Shown one piece after another: positions 3,461 to 63,318 of a stretch of DNA of 64,000 bases; within the stretch, counting starts at the first letter, position 1, and every line of letters begins with the position of its first letter. The translations under genes and the position numbers were made by a program. Source of the stretch: an uncultured Alphaproteobacteria bacterium (GTDB lineage: Bacteria; Pseudomonadota; Alphaproteobacteria; Rs-D84); assembly GCA_946188105.1 (NCBI GenBank), contig CAMHTQ010000004.1:41890-105889 (forward strand), read 5' to 3'. A model generated the notes under the pieces. The model saw only the letters and a list, made by a program, of their open reading frames with translations. It was not told the DNA's origin and ran no database searches.

Positions 3461-4486
3461 TCACACACGCACATAACCATTATTTGTTTTTCGCACTAAA
3501 CCGCGTAATTCTAAAACAACCAAATCGCGTTTGATTTCCGAAATCGTTTTTTTGACAACCTGTGCCAATACAGATTCAGAAACCGGAACTGAACCCAATG
3601 CATCCAACAACAAATTTTCACTTTCAGTATTTTTATCTGTTGCCAATTTATTTTTTCCAGTGTTATCAACCACTTCAAAAAAATCCCCTGCCCCAGAACA
3701 TAATTTTGCAACACCTTTTGCGATTAAACTGTTTGGTCCAGCCGAACGTGCATCCGACGGATGACTGGGAATTGCCCACAATTCTCGGCTAAAATCCAAT
3801 GCAAATTGAGCCGTTCTCATACTGCCAGATTTTAAATCTGCCTCGCTTAAAATTATTTTTTGTGAAATTCCAGCAATCCAACGATTTCTTTGAACAAAAT
3901 TTGCAGCCCTGGGGATAAATCCGATTGGCATTTCGCTGACCACCGCACCACGTTCAATAATTTCCCAATATAACGATTCGTTTTCCACAGGCCATATATA
4001 ATCAACACCACCGCCCAACACCGCAATTGTTTGAACATTTCCATTTGCACGTAATGCACCTTTGTGTGCCGCAGTATCCGTTCCAATCGCCATTCCAGAT
4101 ACAACCGCCACAGAATGTTTTGCAAATGTTTCTGCGATATCACTGACTAATTTCATACCAACCGCGGTTGCATGACGCGTTCCAACAATTCCAACACAAG
4201 AATGTGATAACACATCTAAATTTCCACGAACAGATATAATTGGTGGATGCCCTTTGATATTTTTCAAACTGACTGGATATAAATCCGAATCATCACATAC
4301 AAAATGAATTCCTAATTTATTTGCCGTATCTATTTCACGCAACACAGAATCCATCAAAGAAACATCATGACGCAAACTATCTGCAGCAGATTCCACAGAA
4401 CCAAATTGCCGAATCAATTTTTCATAACCAACCGGCCCAACTCCAGGCGAACGCAAAATCAACAATTTATCAATCAATTCAGACAT
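3461..4486 (-). CDS. dprA: DNA processing protein DprA (Smf)
   Basis: Rossmann-like DprA core (..VGIVGTRHATAVG..VVSGMAIGTDTAAHKGAL..) and a C-terminal winged-helix region. Confidence 0.85.
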   Translation of the reverse strand: MSELIDKLLILRSPGVGPVGYEKLIRQFGSVESAADSLRHDVSLMDSVLREIDTANKLGIHFVCDDSDLYPVSLKNIKGHPPIISVRGNLDVLSHSCVGIVGTRHATAVGMKLVSDIAETFAKHSVAVVSGMAIGTDTAAHKGALRANGNVQTIAVLGGGVDYIWPVENESLYWEIIERGAVVSEMPIGFIPRAANFVQRNRWIAGISQKIILSEADLKSGSMRTAQFALDFSRELWAIPSHPSDARSAGPNSLIAKGVAKLCSGAGDFFEVVDNTGKNKLATDKNTESENLLLDALGSVPVSESVLAQVVKKTISEIKRDLVVLELRGLVRKTNNGYVRV

Positions 4487-18326: not shown

Positions 18327-18402
18327 TGGTGGCCAGAAGTGGAATCGAACCACTGACACAGGGATTTTCAGTCCCTTGCTCTACCAACTGAGCTATCTGG
18401 CC
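18327..18402 (-). tRNA. tRNA-Phe (GAA)
   Basis: 76-nt cloverleaf GGCCAGATAGCTCAGTTGGTAGAGCAAGGGACTGAAAATCCCTGTGTCAGTGGTTCGATTCCACTTCTGGCCACCA. Anticodon GAA, encoded CCA. Confidence 0.9.
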
Positions 18403-33214: not shown

Positions 33215-33290
33215 TGGTGGACGCGCAGGGACTCGAACCCTGGACCCACTGATTAAGAGTCAGTTGCTCTACCAACTGAGCTACGCATCC
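33215..33290 (-). tRNA. tRNA-Lys (CTT)
   Basis: 76-nt cloverleaf GGATGCGTAGCTCAGTTGGTAGAGCAACTGACTCTTAATCAGTGGGTCCAGGGTTCGAGTCCCTGCGCGTCCACCA. Anticodon CTT. Confidence 0.85.
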
Positions 33291-49626: not shown

Positions 49627-50319
49627 TTAATCTTTAAATTCACACAATTTTATCGGTTCTATTTTTATATCAGAAAAATCACCACGCATATTTTTAAACC
49701 GTGTTATATATTCGGGTTTACCCATCATATCTTCTAAAAACAACCGTTGAACTGTATAATGTCCAGAACCAAACATCACAAACACCGTATCATATTTGTT
49801 TAATGCTGTTGTAATATTTTCCACCATAAACTTATCACGTCTTAATTTCAAATATTCCCACATATCCCTGTATACACCGCCATTTGGATTAGGACCATTA
49901 CGCAAAGCTCTATGCACATCATCACTATCAATTTTTTTATCAGGAAACCCGCCCTGTACAATTTTAACCATTTCTTCTTCTGATAAATCAGCAAAAACAA
50001 TTGGAATATGTTTTTGTACTGCACGCACCGCAGCATATGCCAACGTATTTACCTGGAATCCACGTGCTCTGCATTTGTGTTCAAATCCAGCATTTTCCAT
50101 TTCTATTAAAAACACATCTGGCTTTATACCAAATTCATCACCCAAACAATGATCCAGCATATCAAATGATATATTTAAACCATGATCATCAGCCATATAA
50201 ACCAACGTTTTATTATTTGATTTAAACACAGCAACAAACGGAGAACTATCAACAAAATTCGCTATTTTTTCCGCTTTATCCCATGAACATAATAAATCAA
50301 AATTTGGTTTAAATTGCAT
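49627..50319 (-). CDS. Hypothetical protein, possibly TraB/GumN-like
   Basis: C-terminal ..VFVMFGSGHY.. resembles the TraB/GumN GxGH motif. The assignment is weak. Confidence 0.4.
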   Translation of the reverse strand: MQFKPNFDLLCSWDKAEKIANFVDSSPFVAVFKSNNKTLVYMADDHGLNISFDMLDHCLGDEFGIKPDVFLIEMENAGFEHKCRARGFQVNTLAYAAVRAVQKHIPIVFADLSEEEMVKIVQGGFPDKKIDSDDVHRALRNGPNPNGGVYRDMWEYLKLRRDKFMVENITTALNKYDTVFVMFGSGHYTVQRLFLEDMMGKPEYITRFKNMRGDFSDIKIEPIKLCEFKD

Positions 50320-51929: not shown

Positions 51930-52568
51930 ATGGAAAAACAAGAAATAAGAACATTTGGTCGTCGTCATGGCAAAAAATTATCTGCCCGCAAACAATTTTT
52001 GTTGGACAATATTTTGCCGGCCTTTTTGCCAAAAAATATCAAAAACACCGGGAATTTAATTCTGGAAATTGGTTTTGGTAATGGTGAACATGTACGCGAT
52101 TTGGCAATACGTCACCCCGATTCGATAATTATCGGTGCAGAACCATTTATGAACGGTGTTGCCGCCTTACTTTCGGCTATAACAAGCGAATCGGATAATC
52201 AAATTTTACAAGAATACAAAAATATTCGTATTTGGCCGGACGATGTCCGTAAATTATTACACGATTCGGAATTAAAATTTTCTGAAATTTGGGTTCTGCA
52301 CCCTGACCCTTGGCCCAAGGCCAGACATGAAAAACGTCGGTTATTAAATTCTGATTTCTTGAAATTGCTGGGCACATTTCTGGATACAAACGGACAAATA
52401 ATTATCGGCACAGACCATTGGGAATATTTCGATTGGATTGTGAACGAGGTTAAAAAAACTTCTCTATATGCATCGTTTCCGCCACTTTCTGTTATTCACA
52501 CACGTTATGCTGAAAAAAATATGGCCGAAACGGACACCCCAAAATATTTGGTTTTAACCAATCAATAA
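51930..52568 (+). CDS. trmB: tRNA (guanine46-N7)-methyltransferase
   Basis: ..EIGFGNGEH...GAEP.. SAM-binding TrmB pattern. Confidence 0.8.
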   Translation: MEKQEIRTFGRRHGKKLSARKQFLLDNILPAFLPKNIKNTGNLILEIGFGNGEHVRDLAIRHPDSIIIGAEPFMNGVAALLSAITSESDNQILQEYKNIRIWPDDVRKLLHDSELKFSEIWVLHPDPWPKARHEKRRLLNSDFLKLLGTFLDTNGQIIIGTDHWEYFDWIVNEVKKTSLYASFPPLSVIHTRYAEKNMAETDTPKYLVLTNQ

Positions 52569-53230
52569 CTGACAAAACATTTTAGCTTTAAATCCGGACA
52601 CCCAGCACAAGCCAACCTGTACACCTGCTCTGCCCTAGTATAACTCTCATTTAACAAAACATGTAATTCCATATCTGGATTCGCATTCCATCCAGACAAT
52701 GCCGCATAAATGCGCCCAGTAAAATCAGATTTTTCTTTATCTTCATGGCTTAATATCAGTAACAATGCCGATGCCTGTATTTTCTTTAACGATTCGAAAA
52801 CCCGTTCCCAATCTAATGGCCAAACATCAAATATATCCAAACCTATACACAAATCTTTGTTAAAAAACAAATCCGCACGCACAGACACAAACGAATCGAC
52901 GAATCGTTCTAAATCAGACAATTTAACAATAATTTGTGCAGCATCAGCCCCATTTTTAAATGCTGTCTTTATATCAACCGCCAATTCCGACATAGTATGT
53001 TCATTGATATTTGCAACATTAAAACGGGTCATCAATTTTAAATTTAACTTTTCTAACCATGGCCAAACAACCTTTATCTCATTTGGTGCCACCGATACTG
53101 CAGGAATCTTCATATCGGTAATAAATTCGGCCGCCCCAGCCAAATCAGCCCCATCACTGCCATCTGGTACCCATAATGATATTGTTTTTACAACGTCCTC
53201 GTCATTAAAAATTTCTTTTATATCTATCAT
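52562..53230 (-). CDS. Hypothetical protein
   Basis: 222-aa ORF convergent with trmB, overlapping it by 7 nt. I recognise no family. Confidence 0.4.
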   Translation of the reverse strand: MIDIKEIFNDEDVVKTISLWVPDGSDGADLAGAAEFITDMKIPAVSVAPNEIKVVWPWLEKLNLKLMTRFNVANINEHTMSELAVDIKTAFKNGADAAQIIVKLSDLERFVDSFVSVRADLFFNKDLCIGLDIFDVWPLDWERVFESLKKIQASALLLILSHEDKEKSDFTGRIYAALSGWNANPDMELHVLLNESYTRAEQVYRLACAGCPDLKLKCFVSY

Positions 53231-53272
53231 AATACTTTCTAGTTTATCATAAATATGATATAATTAAAACAA

Positions 53273-54190
53273 ATGAAATTATCAGAACGTGTAAATCTTT
53301 TATTGCTTGGAACATTATGGACATTGGCCATAGTGCTGATATTGGATTTTTGGTTAAATACGGCATATAACTTTAACATTTTTTCCAGCGACCATTGGAA
53401 ATTCGTATCTAATTTACAGGCCACAAATCAACATATCGCTTCCGGATTTTATGTTGCAATTATATTGGCTGTGGTTGCTTGTATCACTGGTTTATATGTC
53501 CTATTTCGTCCTAAATTCAGGAAAATAGAATTAAACCAACCAACAAAACCAACATCTGTTCCACAACCAACACAACAACCAATTCAAAAACCGGAACCTG
53601 TTCAGCAACCAAATAACATTGCACCAGCACAACCGGTACAACCAAACATTCAAAAACCTGTGATGCAACGGCCACCACATTTACATATACAAATGCCACA
53701 AAACCCACCCAGACAACCGGTTACAAACACAAATCCACAACCATCTGTAACCACTAAACCAAAACACCCAGAATTGCTGTATGTGGATGAAATGCGGGCT
53801 GCATTTGACAAAAATGGGTACAAGGTATTATCACCCAAGATTATTTCTGGGACACCATTGTCTTTGATAGCATTGGGAACAAATGAAACATTATGGTTGG
53901 GGGCTGCAAATATTTCTCACGAACAAATGACAGATATCATTTTGTCATTTAAAAAGATTTTCCAAGAAACCCTAGAAGATATTGAAATTGATATAAATTC
54001 GTTTATTATAAACCCAACAGACACAGATTCTGTGGATGCAATTTTGGACCTTAAAACGATTGAAGAATTACCGTCTGCAATTGCAAATATTCCAAATGCC
54101 CCAGAGTCCGAGTTTGATAAAGAATCTGACAATATGAATGCTTTTGCTGGCTATATTGAAACAGTATTAACATATTTGGGAAATAAATAA
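53273..54190 (+). CDS. Hypothetical membrane protein with a Pro/Gln-rich linker and a C-terminal globular domain
   Basis: Two N-terminal TM helices, then a PQ-rich region, then ..NGYKVLSPKIISGTPLSLIALGTNETLWLG... First gene of a four-gene operon. Confidence 0.5.
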   Translation: MKLSERVNLLLLGTLWTLAIVLILDFWLNTAYNFNIFSSDHWKFVSNLQATNQHIASGFYVAIILAVVACITGLYVLFRPKFRKIELNQPTKPTSVPQPTQQPIQKPEPVQQPNNIAPAQPVQPNIQKPVMQRPPHLHIQMPQNPPRQPVTNTNPQPSVTTKPKHPELLYVDEMRAAFDKNGYKVLSPKIISGTPLSLIALGTNETLWLGAANISHEQMTDIILSFKKIFQETLEDIEIDINSFIINPTDTDSVDAILDLKTIEELPSAIANIPNAPESEFDKESDNMNAFAGYIETVLTYLGNK

Positions 54191-54693
54191 TGAAAATATC
54201 AGAAAGCACTGCAATCGCAAGAATATCTGATCTGGGTATGGATGATATGCCGGTGGTTGAATATACTCCAAAACCAACAAAACTGCCAGAAAATTGGTTC
54301 ACTAAATATCGTGAATTGTGCCATAAATTTATGGAATCTTTGACAGAATGTTCCACAGAAATCGCATTTATGAATTTATCACAAAATGAATTTATGGCGC
54401 TGATTACAGGTCGTGCCCTGCCACGCAACACATCAATCAGATGGCGGATTCCAATCACAATGGGTGGGGAAATGTCAATCGACAATATGTTTCTATGCCG
54501 CACTTTTCCACACTCACAAAATCTGGACAGATTTATTCTCGAACAGTCAGGCAACGAAACAATATGGTTACCCAATCCGGCCAAGGCAATATACGTTCCT
54601 TCACATACGGCCAGTGGCGGTGCCGGCGGTAACGCAACATCTGACCGTCTGTCACAAATGGCGGCACAATTATCTGGTAATACCCTGGAATAA
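54190..54693 (+). CDS. Hypothetical protein
   Basis: Start overlaps the upstream stop (TAATG). I recognise no family. Confidence 0.45.
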   Translation: MKISESTAIARISDLGMDDMPVVEYTPKPTKLPENWFTKYRELCHKFMESLTECSTEIAFMNLSQNEFMALITGRALPRNTSIRWRIPITMGGEMSIDNMFLCRTFPHSQNLDRFILEQSGNETIWLPNPAKAIYVPSHTASGGAGGNATSDRLSQMAAQLSGNTLE

Positions 54694-54712
54694 AAGCGAT
54701 AAAGGTGTACAA

Positions 54713-55147
54713 ATGAATTTGGATGAATTTTTATCTACTATAAAAACCAAAGGTGCACTTATTTGGGGGCCTTGCAATGTTCGTGCCATAGAATATGCAA
54801 ATTCACTGTTACAACAAAAGAAATGTGCAATGCTGCCAAAGTTTATGCTGGATTTATACACAAAAACGGCTGGCATCAACCTGGGTGTCGGTTATATTTT
54901 TGGACCATCTGAATTACCAAACGGGAAAAATTTTCCAATCCCAGATATTGTTAAAATAAACGATGAAATTCGTAATATTCCGTCCCTACACAATAAAACA
55001 TTATTTGCTAGAAACGATTTATTTTGGTTTGCATTTGATGTGTTTGGTAAATGTTATATGTTGAACAACACAACTGGTACAATATTACGTACATATGATG
55101 ATCCATACCGTGCATTGTACGATTGTTTAATGGGTGGAAAAATATAA
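54713..55147 (+). CDS. Hypothetical protein
   Basis: The ATG with a GGTG RBS, in-frame within the longer ORF-track ORF that begins at 54413. Confidence 0.4.
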   Translation: MNLDEFLSTIKTKGALIWGPCNVRAIEYANSLLQQKKCAMLPKFMLDLYTKTAGINLGVGYIFGPSELPNGKNFPIPDIVKINDEIRNIPSLHNKTLFARNDLFWFAFDVFGKCYMLNNTTGTILRTYDDPYRALYDCLMGGKI

Positions 55148-55148
55148 A

Positions 55149-55352
55149 ATGAAAAAAATATCTATATCTTTATCAGGACACCAAACCAGTATTTCACTGG
55201 AACCAGAATTTATCGCAGAATTACAACGCATAGCGCACGAAAACAAAAAATCTGTCGCATCCATTATTTCTGACATAGATTCATCACGCCCAGCACACTC
55301 TAACCTGTCATCCGCTATACGTGTATGGATATTGAATTCAGTTCGTAAATAA
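55149..55352 (+). CDS. Ribbon-helix-helix (RHH_4-like) small DNA-binding protein
   Basis: MKKISISLSGHQTSISLEPEF..LQRIA...SVASIIS.ID...NLSSAIRVWIL matches the alphaproteobacterial RHH family pattern. Confidence 0.55.
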   Translation: MKKISISLSGHQTSISLEPEFIAELQRIAHENKKSVASIISDIDSSRPAHSNLSSAIRVWILNSVRK

Positions 55353-55355
55353 AAA

Positions 55356-57299
55356 TTACTTCTTTTTTTCTATTCTATATGCAATAAATCCGCCAATTAC
55401 ACTAATCATCAAAATTATTAAAAACCATGCATCACGACCTAATAATCTGTATAATGTCATATGACTGCCACGAACTGTGCCATCTAAAATACCTGACTGC
55501 CCTATTGGTAAACTGGATATAATTTTACCATCCGCACCAATAAACGCACTAATACCAGAATAATTAGCCCTGATTACAGGCATTCCATATTCAATTGCCC
55601 CCCGACGTGCCATATCCATATGTTGATATGTTCCAGGTGTCGCACCAAACCAAGTATCATTTGACACATTTATAATTGCATCTGCAACCTCATCTTTAAT
55701 AACCGCATCTGAAAAAATAATTTCATAACATACAGCCGGTGCAAAAACGAATTTCTTGTCTTTATTTATCTGTAACGCAATTGTTCTGGCACCACCCCCA
55801 GATGTTAAATTAGCAGGTGTCGGCACAAACTTAATCGGGCCATATTCACCAAACGGAACCAAATGGGATTTACCATAAAATTCAATCATTTTTCCAGAAC
55901 TATCAGATATAGCCAATGCGTTATAAACCTTTCTGTCATAATCAACAACATTTGCACCAATTAAAACCGGTATTTTTAATTGCTTCGCAATCGGCATATA
56001 ATCATCAGGCATTAACGCAAATGGATAAGATGTTTCAGGATATAAAGCAACATCTACATTTGACACATCACCAGCCATTTTTACCAATTCTTCGACCCGA
56101 GCTTCTGCCCGATTTAATGCATCCGCACGCGATAAAGCAATCTTGGACTCTTGTGTTGTAACTGGTTGCACAATACGCACAACAATCGAATTTTCACCCA
56201 AATTTGATACAGATATATTGTTATACCCATATCCCATTCCAACACACAATAAAATAAAGAAAAATCCAAAAGAAACCCAATTTACTTTGTTTGCCCTGTT
56301 ATGTAAAATCTGTACAACCGACGCAATCATACCCATTATAACAAATGTCAGCCCCAATGCACCAAACAAAGACATAGAGTTAGAAATCACACCACTGGAC
56401 AATGTTATATTTGAAATTGGATTCCATGGAAATCCAGTTAAAAACCATTCACGCAACCATAAAACAAATGTACAACCAAATGCGAACACAAATGGCTTTA
56501 CGCCTGATTTAGTGTATATACATTGTGTAAATACATACGGAATAACAAAGAATATAATACCAAAAATTCCAATTCCGATTAACGCTGGCACGGTCCAAAC
56601 TGCAAATTGTTTTGTTATTTCTGGAACAACATAAATAGAATGCACAGTCCACCAAAACATAGAAATTGAATACATGGCACCAAACGGCATTGCCCGTAAC
56701 CAAGCCCGCCAAAAACCGATTTTTTCATTATCTAAACACAATAACCAATATGCACCTGCAATTGCTAAAACTGTTACCCACCACATATTAAATGGCGCAA
56801 ACCCTAATGACGCAACCCCACCAAACAATGCACATAAAAGATATTTCCACCATGCAAATTTTTTTGTATTTTCATCCATATATGGATTTTTTATTCTCAA
56901 TTTTTTCAATACAGCAATTTCTTTTGATTCCATCACTTTGGCCTGAGCATCCGTTAAATGATCATATCCCAACAAATGAAACATGCCATGCACAACCATA
57001 TGCGCAACATGATCTTCGACAGAAATTTTAGCATCTTTGGCCTCGTGAACAACAGTATCTAATGAAATATAAATATCACCCAACAATATATCATCACCTA
57101 ATTCAAAAGATAAAACATTCGTGGGCTTATCCATATCACGATACATTTTATTCAATGCATGAATTTCATCATCATCAACCAAAGTAATCGAAACTTCAGA
57201 TTTTTTATATTTTATTCCAACGACCGCATTTGCAATTTTTTCAAAATTGATATTATATTTTTTCCAACGCTTATCATTATAATTAACAAAAACCTTCAT
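55356..57299 (-). CDS. lnt: Apparent in-frame fusion of the rRNA maturation RNase YbeY (N-terminal ~140 aa) with apolipoprotein N-acyltransferase Lnt
   Basis: YbeY motif ..HMVVHGMFHLLGYDH.. in the first ~140 aa. From ..MDENTKKFAWWK.. onward there is the Lnt multi-TM region plus a CN-hydrolase domain. No stop separates them in the 647-aa ORF. Confidence 0.7.
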   Translation of the reverse strand: MKVFVNYNDKRWKKYNINFEKIANAVVGIKYKKSEVSITLVDDDEIHALNKMYRDMDKPTNVLSFELGDDILLGDIYISLDTVVHEAKDAKISVEDHVAHMVVHGMFHLLGYDHLTDAQAKVMESKEIAVLKKLRIKNPYMDENTKKFAWWKYLLCALFGGVASLGFAPFNMWWVTVLAIAGAYWLLCLDNEKIGFWRAWLRAMPFGAMYSISMFWWTVHSIYVVPEITKQFAVWTVPALIGIGIFGIIFFVIPYVFTQCIYTKSGVKPFVFAFGCTFVLWLREWFLTGFPWNPISNITLSSGVISNSMSLFGALGLTFVIMGMIASVVQILHNRANKVNWVSFGFFFILLCVGMGYGYNNISVSNLGENSIVVRIVQPVTTQESKIALSRADALNRAEARVEELVKMAGDVSNVDVALYPETSYPFALMPDDYMPIAKQLKIPVLIGANVVDYDRKVYNALAISDSSGKMIEFYGKSHLVPFGEYGPIKFVPTPANLTSGGGARTIALQINKDKKFVFAPAVCYEIIFSDAVIKDEVADAIINVSNDTWFGATPGTYQHMDMARRGAIEYGMPVIRANYSGISAFIGADGKIISSLPIGQSGILDGTVRGSHMTLYRLLGRDAWFLIILMISVIGGFIAYRIEKKK

Positions 57300-61077: not shown

Positions 61078-63318
61078 TTATAATATGTGACGTTTATTAT
61101 TAGCGTCTGGCGGACTGACAATGCCCTCTTGTTCCATACGTTCCATAAAGCCGGCCGCCTTGTTATAACCGATACCTAACCTGCGTTGTAAATAAGAAAT
61201 CGTAGGTTTTTTATCTTTGATAACAATTTGTTTGGCACGTGTATACATATCGGCATCTTTGTCTTCCTTGGAACTAAATGTTTCACCAATCGAGAATCCA
61301 CCACTGGCATCATCACCACCGACTGCACCACCCTCGGCTACACCTTGGACATATTCAGGTTCGCCCTGTGAACGCAAGAAATCCCCAATCTTTTTTAATT
61401 CCTTGTCAGAAATGTATGCACCATGTATACGCACCAAATCATGTCCAGAATCACTGTACAACATATCACCACATGCCAATAATTGTTCTGCACCCTTTTC
61501 ACCCAAGGCAGTTATAGAGTCAACAATACTGCGTGCATGGAATGAAACACGGATTGGGAAATTCGATTTAATAACACCAGTAATAGTGTTCGTATCAGGA
61601 CGCTGGGTCGCCATAATCAAATGGATACCTGCTGCACGTGCCTTTTGTGCGATACGTTGTACACATGCCTCGACATCCTTGCGAGCCACCATCATCAAAT
61701 CGGCAACCTCGTCAATCACGATAACAATGTATGGCATATCAGACAAATCTACCTCTTGGGTTTCAAATATTAACTCACCAGTTTCTTCATCTGTTCCAAC
61801 TGCGACTTGCTTGGTTACAACCTCGCCTGCTTCACGTTTTGCAGAAACTATTTCGTTATAACTTTCTATATTTCTGGCATTAACAACTTGCAATCTTTTA
61901 TAACGATCTTCCATTTCACGCACAGCCCATTTTAATGCATTTACAGCCGGCACTGGATCCAATTTAACAATCGGGGTAATCAAATGTGGAATATCATCCC
62001 AGAATCCAAAATCAACCCCCTTGGGATCGATAATAATCAACTTACATTTATCAGGTGTAAAATGATAAACAATAGATGTAATAATTGACTGCACAAATAC
62101 AGATTTACCAGTTCCCGTATGTCCTGCAATCAACATATGTGGCATTTTTGCCAAATCGTAATACAATGGGTTACCACCAATATCCACACCCAATGCCAAC
62201 GGTATTTTAAATGGAGAATTCATAAACATATCATTTTCTATCAAACCACGAAACTTTACCATTTGTGGTTTTAAATTCGCCATTTCCACACCAATCAATT
62301 GTGTTGATGGAATTGGTGCAATACGCATATTTTTGGTTGCCATTGCACGAGTCATATCCTTGACCGTTTTGGTTACATCTGTCAATTTAGTTCCACTTTC
62401 TGGCAAGAAATCATACAACGTAACAATTGGTCCCGGATGAATTTCAGTAATATGTCCAAACACATTATATTCTGCAAAATGGGATTCCATTGCCTCTGCA
62501 TTTTTCTTTAATTCTGGTGTTACGACACCCTTACCAAATACAGACATTTCCAAAAACGCAGGATCTGGCAATTCGTATTCATATTCTTCGAGTTCTTCGG
62601 CCTCGACCTTTTTCTTGACGGTTCTTATTCTTTTTGGTTTTGGTTTTTCTTCTACTACTTCTTCAACTTCTTCTTCGGTCTCTTCTTCCTCTTCGTCCTC
62701 ATCCTCTATATCTTCACGCATTGGCAAAATACGGAATGCAGACAAAACCCAACGTATTGAATTCCAAACCAGATGAGCAACCTTGATAACATATTCTAAC
62801 TTTATATTTAATAAAACACCAGCCATCCAGAAAAAACCAACCAAAGATAAAATACCAACCAATATTTGCCAATTTCCCATAAACGAATAAAAATCAGATG
62901 ATGCAATAGCCCCCAGCATTCCACCAAACGATGCCCCCGGAATCAGCATACCAAATCCCATACAACCCAAACACAATGCAATAAAACCACGCAACACATT
63001 ATATTCTGGACTGGTTTCTTGTTCACGTCCACCAATCAAAGAAACCCCAGCACGCATTAAACATAAAAGCAAGAATATCATTGGAATAAATCCAAACACA
63101 TACCGCAAAAATCCAACAATATATCCGAATACACCATGACTGCCAAATGTACTGGAAACCGTCCAACCATCTAAATAAGAATTATGAAATATTGCCGCCA
63201 GTATAAATAAAGCACCCAGCACAAACATCACACCACCCAGCATCCGCCAGGCCAAACTCTTCAATGCCCCAGAAAGTTTTTCTGGTAAAAATCTAGATTT
63301 TCCTTCCATACCAGGCAT
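61078..63318 (-). CDS. ftsK: DNA translocase FtsK
   Basis: N-terminal multi-TM domain, acidic linker, motor domain (..GHTGTGKSV..), and a gamma winged-helix C-terminus. Confidence 0.9.
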   Translation of the reverse strand: MPGMEGKSRFLPEKLSGALKSLAWRMLGGVMFVLGALFILAAIFHNSYLDGWTVSSTFGSHGVFGYIVGFLRYVFGFIPMIFLLLCLMRAGVSLIGGREQETSPEYNVLRGFIALCLGCMGFGMLIPGASFGGMLGAIASSDFYSFMGNWQILVGILSLVGFFWMAGVLLNIKLEYVIKVAHLVWNSIRWVLSAFRILPMREDIEDEDEEEEETEEEVEEVVEEKPKPKRIRTVKKKVEAEELEEYEYELPDPAFLEMSVFGKGVVTPELKKNAEAMESHFAEYNVFGHITEIHPGPIVTLYDFLPESGTKLTDVTKTVKDMTRAMATKNMRIAPIPSTQLIGVEMANLKPQMVKFRGLIENDMFMNSPFKIPLALGVDIGGNPLYYDLAKMPHMLIAGHTGTGKSVFVQSIITSIVYHFTPDKCKLIIIDPKGVDFGFWDDIPHLITPIVKLDPVPAVNALKWAVREMEDRYKRLQVVNARNIESYNEIVSAKREAGEVVTKQVAVGTDEETGELIFETQEVDLSDMPYIVIVIDEVADLMMVARKDVEACVQRIAQKARAAGIHLIMATQRPDTNTITGVIKSNFPIRVSFHARSIVDSITALGEKGAEQLLACGDMLYSDSGHDLVRIHGAYISDKELKKIGDFLRSQGEPEYVQGVAEGGAVGGDDASGGFSIGETFSSKEDKDADMYTRAKQIVIKDKKPTISYLQRRLGIGYNKAAGFMERMEQEGIVSPPDANNKRHIL

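Follow-up and report, generated by a model that had tools for sequence, protein, structure and literature searches.

Our subject is a compact four-gene operon in the genome of an uncultured alphaproteobacterium of the order Rs-D84, examined within a stretch of 64,000 nucleotides (GenBank assembly GCA_946188105.1, contig CAMHTQ010000004.1, positions 41,890 to 105,889 of the forward strand) that we refer to as the window and in whose numbering the features below are given. All four genes lie on the plus strand. Gene 1 (53273-54190) encodes a protein of 305 residues with two transmembrane helices, a Pro/Gln-rich linker and an acidic C-terminal domain; gene 2 (54190-54693) encodes a stand-alone domain of 167 residues that is probably HNH-derived, belongs to the type found at the C-terminus of Escherichia coli YhhZ and is catalytically degenerate; gene 3 (54713-55147) encodes a SUKH-superfamily (SMI1/KNR4, YrhA-family) protein of 144 residues, the immunity-type partner of gene 2; and gene 4 (55149-55352) encodes a ribbon-helix-helix (RHH) protein of 67 residues from the RHH_4 family. 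A conserved neighbour of 222 residues, here called g0 (52562-53230, minus strand), diverges from gene 1, and the 42 bp that separate the two (53231-53272) are a likely promoter and/or operator. We argue that these genes descend from a toxin-immunity cassette related to those linked to a type IV coupling protein (T4CP), and that the toxin may since have been disarmed and put to another use.

The initial annotation of this DNA described four same-strand open reading frames (ORFs) that overlap or abut one another, and much of that description holds: the frames, their lengths and the TAATG in which the stop codon of gene 1 overlaps the start codon of gene 2 are all present, and 19 nt separate gene 2 from gene 3. 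The overlap drawn between genes 3 and 4, which follows if GTG 55134 is taken as the start of a 72-residue gene 4, is the part that probably does not stand. Because an independent gene call on an identical contig gives 67 residues from ATG 55149, one base past the gene 3 stop, because homologues of gene 4 are 66-72 residues long and the gene calls in relatives give 67-71 residues, and because the Pfam RHH_4 match begins only at residue 7 of the 72-residue version, gene 4 most likely starts at ATG 55149 and abuts gene 3 without overlapping it.

How widely is this arrangement kept? A scan of one genome per species found a relative of gene 2 in 242 species, and we compared the loci, each with 6 kb on either side, of the best 80 of these species, which are Candidatus Enterousia and its allies in the GTDB order Rs-D84. 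In 80/80 of these loci genes 1-4 occur in identical order with the divergent g0 upstream, at the same chromosomal position and between the same flanking genes, which in the window have housekeeping roles (gltX, trmB, a ybeY-lnt fusion, mucR and rarA). The tight junctions are kept as well: the 1-nt overlap of genes 1 and 2 is found in 62 of 79 loci, and the median gaps over the 79 loci are 11 nt between genes 2 and 3 and 2 nt between genes 3 and 4. The proposal of a single conserved operon is thus borne out, and the four genes are conserved as a set well beyond local synteny, so that the condition named at the outset as refuting it, a lack of such conservation in relatives, does not hold. Median identities to the window proteins, again over 79 loci, are 60% for gene 2, 54% for gene 3 and 66% for gene 4, alongside 67% for TrmB and 52% for Lnt; gene 1 homologues are present in every locus but are much more divergent (33%). 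Against the closest relatives, the ratio of nonsynonymous to synonymous substitution rates (dN/dS) is 0.084 for gene 2, 0.075 for gene 3, 0.21 for gene 1, 0.16 for gene 4 and 0.12 for trmB, values that are approximate with dS near saturation. All four genes are therefore real and under purifying selection. This constraint is met in fermentative bacteria whose genomes measure only ∼0.75-1.0 Mb (PMC12306168).

Gene 2 was described at first as having no recognisable motif, as was gene 3. Neither description survives. Gene 2 has no usable match in Pfam, NCBIfam, PADLOC or the sequences of the Protein Data Bank (PDB); its 515 close homologues, all from uncultured animal-gut Alphaproteobacteria, are 166-170 residues long and carry no Pfam domain, and a profile search of 1.84 billion representative proteins recovered 79 clusters only. 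The more distant relatives are 180-433 residues long, and many of them start with MWDWS followed by a Pro/Gln-rich stretch; one further match, a 1785-residue repeat protein (P0277), was set aside as a spurious low-complexity match. Alignment of the Rs-D84 proteins, the clade to which the window belongs, gives the motif P-x-N-x-S-x-R-x-R-x-P-xxx-G-G-x5-N-x-F-x-C-x-T-F-P-x5-D-x-F-xxx-Q (residues 78-117, encoded at 54421-54540), which reads as an HNH motif without its histidines. An AlphaFold2 (AF2) model of gene 2 with a predicted local distance difference test (pLDDT) score of 82.8 places two strands (81-85 and 100-104) and a helix (105-117) exactly at this motif. When this model is used as a Foldseek query, its weak top matches in the PDB are HNH domains (Cas8-HNH, the HNH domain of Cas9 and Gme), and ∼20 named HNH endonucleases are among the top 50 weak matches in BFVD.

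The wider family shows what the window protein has lost. Among 48 family representatives, position 84 is His in 32, position 99 is Asn in 46, position 109 is His in 28 and position 113 is His in 29, and the window protein has R84, N99, S109 and D113 at these places, with R84 and D113 invariant in its clade. The H-N-H-xxx-H spacing of the family is, we presume, close to that of the colicin E9 DNase. In other words, the catalytic general-base histidine and the metal-binding histidines are gone and N99 is kept. Because R84, S109 and D113 replace the motif histidines, we regard gene 2 as HNH-derived and do not class it as an active HNH nuclease. Within the clade, 37 columns of gene 2 do not vary, among them a C-terminal tail, GGxGGNATxDR(L)xQ, that lies in a part of the protein modelled as disordered (residues 142-152 and 161-167); the conserved tail as a whole, GGxGGNATxDRLSQMAAQ, covers residues 143-160 (54616-54669). 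Because the tail is disordered yet conserved, it suggests a docking site.

A named relative of gene 2 is found in E. coli K-12, where yhhZ, annotated as a putative endonuclease, shares 4 nt with the yrhA gene that comes next (NC_000913: 3581863-3584309). YhhZ has an N-terminal T6SS_HCP domain and a C-terminal region with weak matches to HNH (E=0.005) and Col-Pyo_DNase. Comparison of the gene 2 family alignment, with the window protein as its first row, against YhhZ residues 253-387 by hhalign gave a probability of 98.6% (E=1.2e-15, 132 columns), and the histidine-bearing subset of gene 2 proteins from loci that also encode a coupling protein (class A, described below) gave 98.7% (E=5e-16). At the level of its family, then, profile comparison shows gene 2 to be homologous to the HNH-type C-terminal toxin domain of YhhZ. 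Because the YhhZ C-terminus has no above-threshold Pfam model and yet the hhalign probability is so high, the two would thus belong to an unmodelled HNH toxin family that spans E. coli Hcp fusions and alphaproteobacterial stand-alone proteins. The C-terminal tail of gene 2, although conserved across its family, is absent from YhhZ, and the charge of the domain also differs: the isoelectric point (pI) of gene 2 in the Rs-D84 clade has a median of 5.4 (range 4.7-6.75), against a median of 8.5 for the class A domains and 9.7 for the YhhZ domain.

The partner encoded by gene 3 points in the same direction as YrhA. The window protein itself matches the NCBIfam YrhA family (NF038335) at 22.2 bits (E=1e-4), short of the cut-off of 55. 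Its homologue in the class A locus L092, to which it is linked by phmmer (E=2.5e-10), matches NF038335 above the cut-off (66.6 bits, E=2e-18) and finds E. coli YrhA by BLASTP (E=7e-7). Pfam SMI1_KNR4 matches weakly in 7 of 38 gene 3 family members, and one NCBI record names a gene 3 homologue SMI1/KNR4. An AF2 model built from 38 homologues (pLDDT 93) has as its best Foldseek matches in the PDB, far ahead of the rest, 2ICG (probability 1.00, template modelling (TM) score 0.67) and 2PAG (probability 0.99, TM score 0.66-0.71), both of which are listed as SUKH structures (PMC3113570). Judged by this model, gene 3 has the SUKH alpha/beta fold. SUKH proteins are immunity proteins that adjoin nuclease toxins, including HNH domains related to the colicin and pyocin DNases (PMC3113570), and gene 3 lies directly downstream of gene 2 in all loci, among them L089, which has the pair of genes 2 and 3 only. 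The median pI of gene 3 in the clade is 7.8, against 4.5-5.6 in three class A examples.

Outside the Rs-D84 clade, the related loci fall into two arrangements. In class A, one or two copies of a gene 1 homologue are followed by a VirD4/TraG-type T4CP of 730-784 residues and then by the homologues of genes 2 and 3. These loci (L091, L092, L094, L095/096, L098, L099, L100 and L101/102; for example, L092:3145-9719 and L100:4145-8972) come from uncultured Alphaproteobacteria with a guanine-plus-cytosine (GC) content of 34% to 54%. Their T4CPs match Pfam T4SS-DNA_transf, TrwB_AAD_bind and TraG-D_C as well as NCBIfam VirD4/TraG (E 1e-38 to 1e-42), and they are 57-79% identical between loci. Within 8 kb of the class A loci we found no other recognisable secretion genes, and the setting is chromosomal housekeeping. 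Class B, made up of the window clade together with L090, L093, L103 and L104 (GC 30% to 56%), has the order gene 1, gene 2, gene 3, RHH_4 without a T4CP. All-against-all phmmer comparison shows each part to be homologous across the two classes, and in the loci sampled the catalytic residues of gene 2 divide along the same line without exception: H84, N99, H106, H109 and H113 are present in every class A gene 2, whereas the class B proteins have neither H109 nor H113 and carry R, K or W at position 84. The pair-only locus L089 still has H at position 84. Class A gene 2 proteins also have a conserved MWDWS N-terminus and a Pro/Gln-rich extension. Judging ORF identities by eye, cysS lies upstream and uvrB and uvrC lie downstream in L100/L101, and the class B loci L093 and L104 adjoin asmA and uvrB. 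Class A L100 and class B L093 and L104 share the uvrB neighbourhood, which points to a single ancestral locus, whether the coupling protein is present or not.

Several features around these distant loci are recorded here in their own right. Tandem large polytopic membrane proteins, two or three paralogues each, adjoin the module at L103:1-5396 (minus strand), L104:1-4619 (minus strand) and L092:1-277 (minus strand), and they have a weak similarity to TrbL/VirB6 (E=0.007, below threshold). Rickettsiales carry tandem VirB6 genes, which these arrays recall. The 564- and 631-residue genes upstream of the gene 1 homologue in L103 and L104 were considered as degenerate T4CPs and rejected, as neither phmmer nor Pfam gave a match. 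Additionally, a TcpQ, secretin and PilO cluster resembling that of type IV pili lies at L103:13031-16519, separated by 4.5 kb from the class B module upstream of it, in a low-GC alphaproteobacterial metagenome-assembled genome.

The last gene and the upstream region bear on how the operon might be regulated. Gene 4 matches RHH_4 (PF13467) at E=4.3e-20, with 72 bits against a cut-off of 25 and over profile positions 2-66 of 67, so that its earlier identification as an RHH_4 protein is secure. It lies at the 3' end of every class B locus; in the class A locus L094 an RHH_4 gene lies upstream of the gene 1 homologue. Profile searches of the PDB found nothing for the families of genes 1, 3 and 4, so gene 4 gained no relative of solved structure from them, and a literature search on RHH_4 returned nothing relevant. 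Upstream of gene 1, the 42 bp include a palindrome, TATCATAAATATGATA (53245-53260), and a sequence like an extended -10 element, TGATATAAT (53256-53264). Because that element ends only 8-10 nt ahead of the gene 1 ATG, the gene 1 mRNA may be leaderless or near-leaderless. The region is almost invariant over 59 distinct Rs-D84 sequences (consensus CTTTtTAcTTTAtCAyAAATATGaTAyAAT) despite saturated synonymous divergence in the adjacent genes (dS > 1), and a 22-nt motif within it occurs once in the window against 0.05 occurrences expected by chance. Its role could be that of two promoters placed back to back, of an RHH operator, or of both. Neither Pfam nor NCBIfam has a model that matches the divergent g0, which shares 7 nt with the 3' end of trmB; every Rs-D84 locus and L090 have it beside gene 1, in L093 it is 3 kb away, and the class A loci lack it. 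It may be co-regulated with the operon.

Is the operon simply a toxin module that still works? In that case gene 2 would remain the toxin of an addiction or immunity module, acting through a non-canonical active site or in a non-nuclease mode (for example, by tight binding of a target), with gene 3 as its antitoxin or immunity protein, gene 4 as the RHH regulator of a three-part arrangement like that of toxin-antitoxin systems, and gene 1 as an accessory membrane protein. The order of toxin then immunity gene with tiny spacers is canonical for such a module, the promoter has a conserved palindrome, RHH proteins are typical regulators of toxin-antitoxin operons, and the HNH scaffold has N99, G92-G93, P88 and Q119 without variation. 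Set against this, the general-base histidine is R throughout the clade and two further histidines are gone; gene 2 is acidic, unlike DNA-binding toxins; and gene 4 consists of the RHH_4 domain only, with no extra antitoxin domain, and is the last gene, separated from gene 2 by gene 3, which is not the type II toxin-antitoxin layout of an RHH domain fused to a toxin-neutralising region and adjoining its toxin. PADLOC-DB 2.0 offers no defence system for the operon proteins either: all that it returned was PD-T4-6 for the gene 1 linker, a low-complexity match (E=0.004). Finally, the locus is fixed at one position in 80/80 species, whereas SUKH-linked toxin loci vary highly between strains (PMC3113570). 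Weighing these points, we judge a still-toxic module to be unlikely, though not far-fetched.

Gene 1 is the membrane protein of the operon, and its class A relatives adjoin the coupling protein. Hydropathy places two hydrophobic segments at ∼residues 6-28 and 54-81; these are followed by a linker of 81 residues (85-165) that is 44% Pro+Gln and by a very acidic C-terminal domain (residues 166-305, encoded at 53768-54187; pI 4.1). The initial annotation was therefore right to call the protein membrane-anchored with a Pro/Gln spacer. With two helices, each flanked on the same side by basic residues, the predicted location of the C-terminal domain is the cytoplasm. A match to PepSY_TM (E=4e-4, below the cut-off) was discarded as the product of a hydrophobic segment and the low-complexity linker. 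Phmmer and alignment show that the membrane proteins encoded ahead of the T4CP in class A loci are homologues of gene 1. Outside the clade, the relatives share a membrane region at the N-terminus in which the pattern W-x-F-(D/N)-I...H-W...G-W is conserved, then a linker that is basic or rich in Pro and a longer C-terminal domain, of which the window clade has lost two segments; a homologue search with the window's own C-terminal domain found three fragments only.

The suggestion that this domain might hold the residues of a PD-(D/E)xK or NERD nuclease was pursued in three ways and was not confirmed by any of them. Three of 15 gene 1 homologues (L091, L090 and L092) align over nearly the full Pfam NERD model (PF08378), below threshold, the best score being 19.9 bits against a gathering cut-off of 22.1 and belonging to a homologue, while the window protein has no match to this model. 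An hhalign comparison of the gene 1 family with the pXO1 NERD protein was not significant (probability 0.1%). In two gene 1 alignments, there are no invariant acidic or Lys columns at the strands where the D...(D/E)xK residues would be expected. Like NERD proteins, then, the three homologues span almost the whole model, and unlike them, the window protein does not match it, lacks two segments of the domain and does not conserve the catalytic residues; what is left is a faint resemblance, by which the C-terminal domain can be placed weakly as a truncated relative of a NERD-like domain. We do not class gene 1 as a NERD protein.

The layout of the class A loci raises the thought that the window operon serves a working type IV secretion system (T4SS), with the genes for its coupling protein and channel lying in another part of the genome; gene 1 would then be a membrane adaptor of the T4CP, comparable in layout to DotM beside DotL, gene 2 a substrate or adaptor recognised via its C-terminal tail, and gene 3 a chaperone. 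In at least eight loci, a VirD4-type T4CP lies between homologues of gene 1 on one side and of genes 2 and 3 on the other. The weakly TrbL/VirB6-like tandem proteins adjoin the module in three loci (L092, L103 and L104), two of which have no T4CP, and the disordered GGxGGNATxDR tail of gene 2, absent from YhhZ, is conserved in the family and invariant in the clade. On the other side of the ledger, tblastn with three T4CPs found none in the 64 kb of the window or in the 80 loci of relatives (±6 kb), and no VirB6-like gene was detectable there either; the remaining window ORFs look like housekeeping genes by eye; the TrbL matches, at E=0.007, fall below threshold; and a metabolic reconstruction of Rs-D84 mentions no secretion system (PMC12306168), which is a non-mention rather than a test. 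A functioning accessory module of this kind seems to us quite unlikely.

The initial annotation had also proposed a regulatory, defence or envelope-signalling module with gene 1 as its membrane sensor. The conflict- or defence-type ancestry has held up, given the toxin-immunity character of genes 2 and 3. Envelope signalling has not fared so well. It would have gene 1 sense at the membrane and relay via genes 2 and 3 to the RHH protein, and it can call on the pairing of a membrane protein with a DNA-binding protein in one tightly coupled operon and on the conserved promoter palindrome. Genes 1-4, however, lack any signalling domain, be it a sensor, a kinase, an anti-sigma factor or another kind; gene 1 exposes a loop of only ∼25 residues to the periplasm; and genes 2 and 3 descend from a toxin-immunity pair. 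With the C-terminal domain predicted to be cytoplasmic, nothing supports gene 1 as a sensor in envelope signalling, and we find this explanation very improbable.

What we propose instead has two layers. The ancestry is well supported: the operon goes back to a toxin of HNH (YhhZ) type paired with an immunity protein of SUKH (YrhA) type, joined by a membrane partner and an RHH_4 protein and related to a T4CP-linked cassette. The fuller proposal, that the operon is the vertically inherited, secretion-decoupled and catalytically disarmed descendant of such a cassette, is one to which we would give an even chance. Under this proposal, gene 2 would no longer cut DNA in the Rs-D84 bacterium and would still form a complex with gene 3 in the manner of a toxin and its immunity protein; gene 1 would hold that complex at the cytoplasmic face of the inner membrane, perhaps via the invariant disordered tail of gene 2; and gene 4 would bind the palindrome TATCATAAATATGATA in the 42-bp region and autoregulate the operon. 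The inversion of charge fits this picture: because gene 2 has turned acidic while gene 3 has lost its acidic, DNA-mimicking character, we infer that DNA binding may have been given up and mutual contact kept. There is a precedent in the teneurins, in which a catalytically inactive HNH toxin domain has been re-used (PMC3482391).

A number of observations weigh against the proposal of a disarmed and decoupled descendant. Foldseek with the gene 2 model gave no significant match in the PDB or BFVD. The hhalign comparison of an Rs-D84-only gene 2 alignment with YhhZ is non-significant (0.7%), though in register, and because this alignment alone does not reach YhhZ, the link of the window protein to the YhhZ superfamily is a transitive one, which runs via HMMER links to histidine-bearing relatives. 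With N99 and several other motif residues invariant, gene 2 may have some unusual residual activity. That the T4CP was lost rather than gained is suggested by the majority state and the shared neighbourhood rather than by a rooted tree. Furthermore, the negative results for the T4CP and VirB6 cover the 64 kb and the flanks of the loci, and a T4CP or T4SS may be encoded elsewhere in the genome. The chief alternative to the proposal is that such a system still works with these proteins.

Comparison with known systems helps to place the operon. YhhZ-YrhA is the closest, with homology between the gene 2 family and YhhZ ∼250-387, a gene 3 family that is YrhA, and the immunity gene directly after the toxin. 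The differences are considerable: YhhZ has an N-terminal Hcp for delivery via a type VI secretion system (T6SS), whereas gene 2 stands alone at 167 residues, lacks the motif histidines, is acidic and has the extra conserved C-terminal tail; the window operon, moreover, adds a membrane protein and an RHH_4 protein and is a fixed part of the core genome. The Hcp-ET1 proteins, in which an HNH-DNase domain forms the C-terminus of Hcp, are antibacterial effectors of the T6SS (PMC6730261). YhhZ has the same class of architecture as these effectors, whether or not it is itself an Hcp-ET1 protein.

A broader likeness is to the polymorphic toxin and SUKH systems (Zhang, Iyer and Aravind 2011; Zhang et al. 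2012), which share with the window operon a domain of HNH type and a downstream SUKH gene on the chromosome (PMC3113570). Unlike those systems, the window operon has no N-terminal trafficking domain (gene 2 is the domain alone, 167 residues), no cassette arrays and no strain-to-strain variability (it is present in 80/80 loci); gene 2 is catalytically degenerate yet under purifying selection; and the fuller relatives of the operon are linked to a type IV coupling protein. In the available part of the text of the 2012 survey (Zhang et al.), neither 'type IV secretion' nor 'VirD4' occurs. Tox-REHH, a divergent HNH toxin of type V, type VI and type VII secretion systems and of other systems, was not connected to the gene 2 family here.

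For the class A relatives, a different comparison applies. The X-Tfe/X-Tfi pairs of Xanthomonas, Stenotrophomonas and Lysobacter are bacteria-killing T4SS effector and immunity pairs. In their gene order, the class A loci are like these in placing an antibacterial-type toxin and an immunity gene right after a VirD4-type T4CP; unlike them, the class A loci have a different toxin family and hosts that are uncultured Alphaproteobacteria, and the window operon itself has no T4CP. No XVIPCD recognition domain was seen either, though no search aimed at one was made. The teneurin case, in turn, is alike in that an HNH toxin domain of bacterial origin, from the GHH clade, lost catalysis and was kept for another use (PMC3482391). 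Teneurins are eukaryotic and extracellular and the HNH clade is a different one, so that they are a precedent for re-use only.

The remainder of the neighbourhood can be described briefly. Converging on gene 4 is a single gene of 647 residues (55356-57299, minus strand) in which YbeY, an rRNA maturation endoribonuclease, is fused to the apolipoprotein N-acyltransferase Lnt (Pfam YbeY, LNT_N and CN_hydrolase); the fusion is found in all relatives examined, including the distant L090. The stop codons of gene 4 and of this convergent gene are 3 nt apart and no terminator fits between them, and no Rfam match for an RNA element was found within 50-58 kb of the window. A 230-residue ORF (49627-50319, minus strand) overlaps the start of gltX by 11 nt, and its place is taken by a 185-residue acetyltransferase in the relatives L003 and L004. 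By eye, the gene at 3461-4486 (minus strand) resembles DprA, which processes DNA in transformation, and that at 61078-63318 (minus strand) resembles FtsK. Only two tRNA genes are present in the window (Phe, 18327-18402; Lys, 33215-33290). Most of the long ORFs are on the minus strand, the GC content is 32-44%, and GC skew is negative in nearly all 1-kb bins of window positions 1-64000, with a cumulative value of -11.5.

Why should an operon of this kind matter? Genomes of ∼900 genes keep little that is dispensable, and this operon is present in every species sampled and is as constrained as tRNA-modification genes; retention in so small a genome, together with strong constraint, points to a real function. 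A DNase toxin that has been stripped of its catalytic histidines and its basic charge, and kept with its immunity partner, offers a system for the study of how genes of biological conflict are re-used. The assignment of gene 2 is also the first to a family for more than 500 proteins that are now called hypothetical, and the candidate new module of a type IV coupling protein with a YhhZ-type HNH toxin bears on how reduced gut bacteria meet their neighbours.

Taken jointly, an undescribed module of T4CP, NERD-like adaptor and YhhZ-type DNase with its YrhA partner, and the conversion of that module into a non-catalytic complex in Rs-D84, make up a picture that we put forward tentatively and regard as somewhat doubtful in its entirety. 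If it is true, the class A module would be a new family of T4SS-delivered toxins outside the Xanthomonadales, in uncultured gut Alphaproteobacteria. The Rs-D84 bacteria, for their part, would have turned a weapon into a membrane-tethered complex with an RHH partner and with an important housekeeping or regulatory function, and the operon would be a bacterial case of a toxin-immunity pair that became fixed among the core genes after its disarmament.

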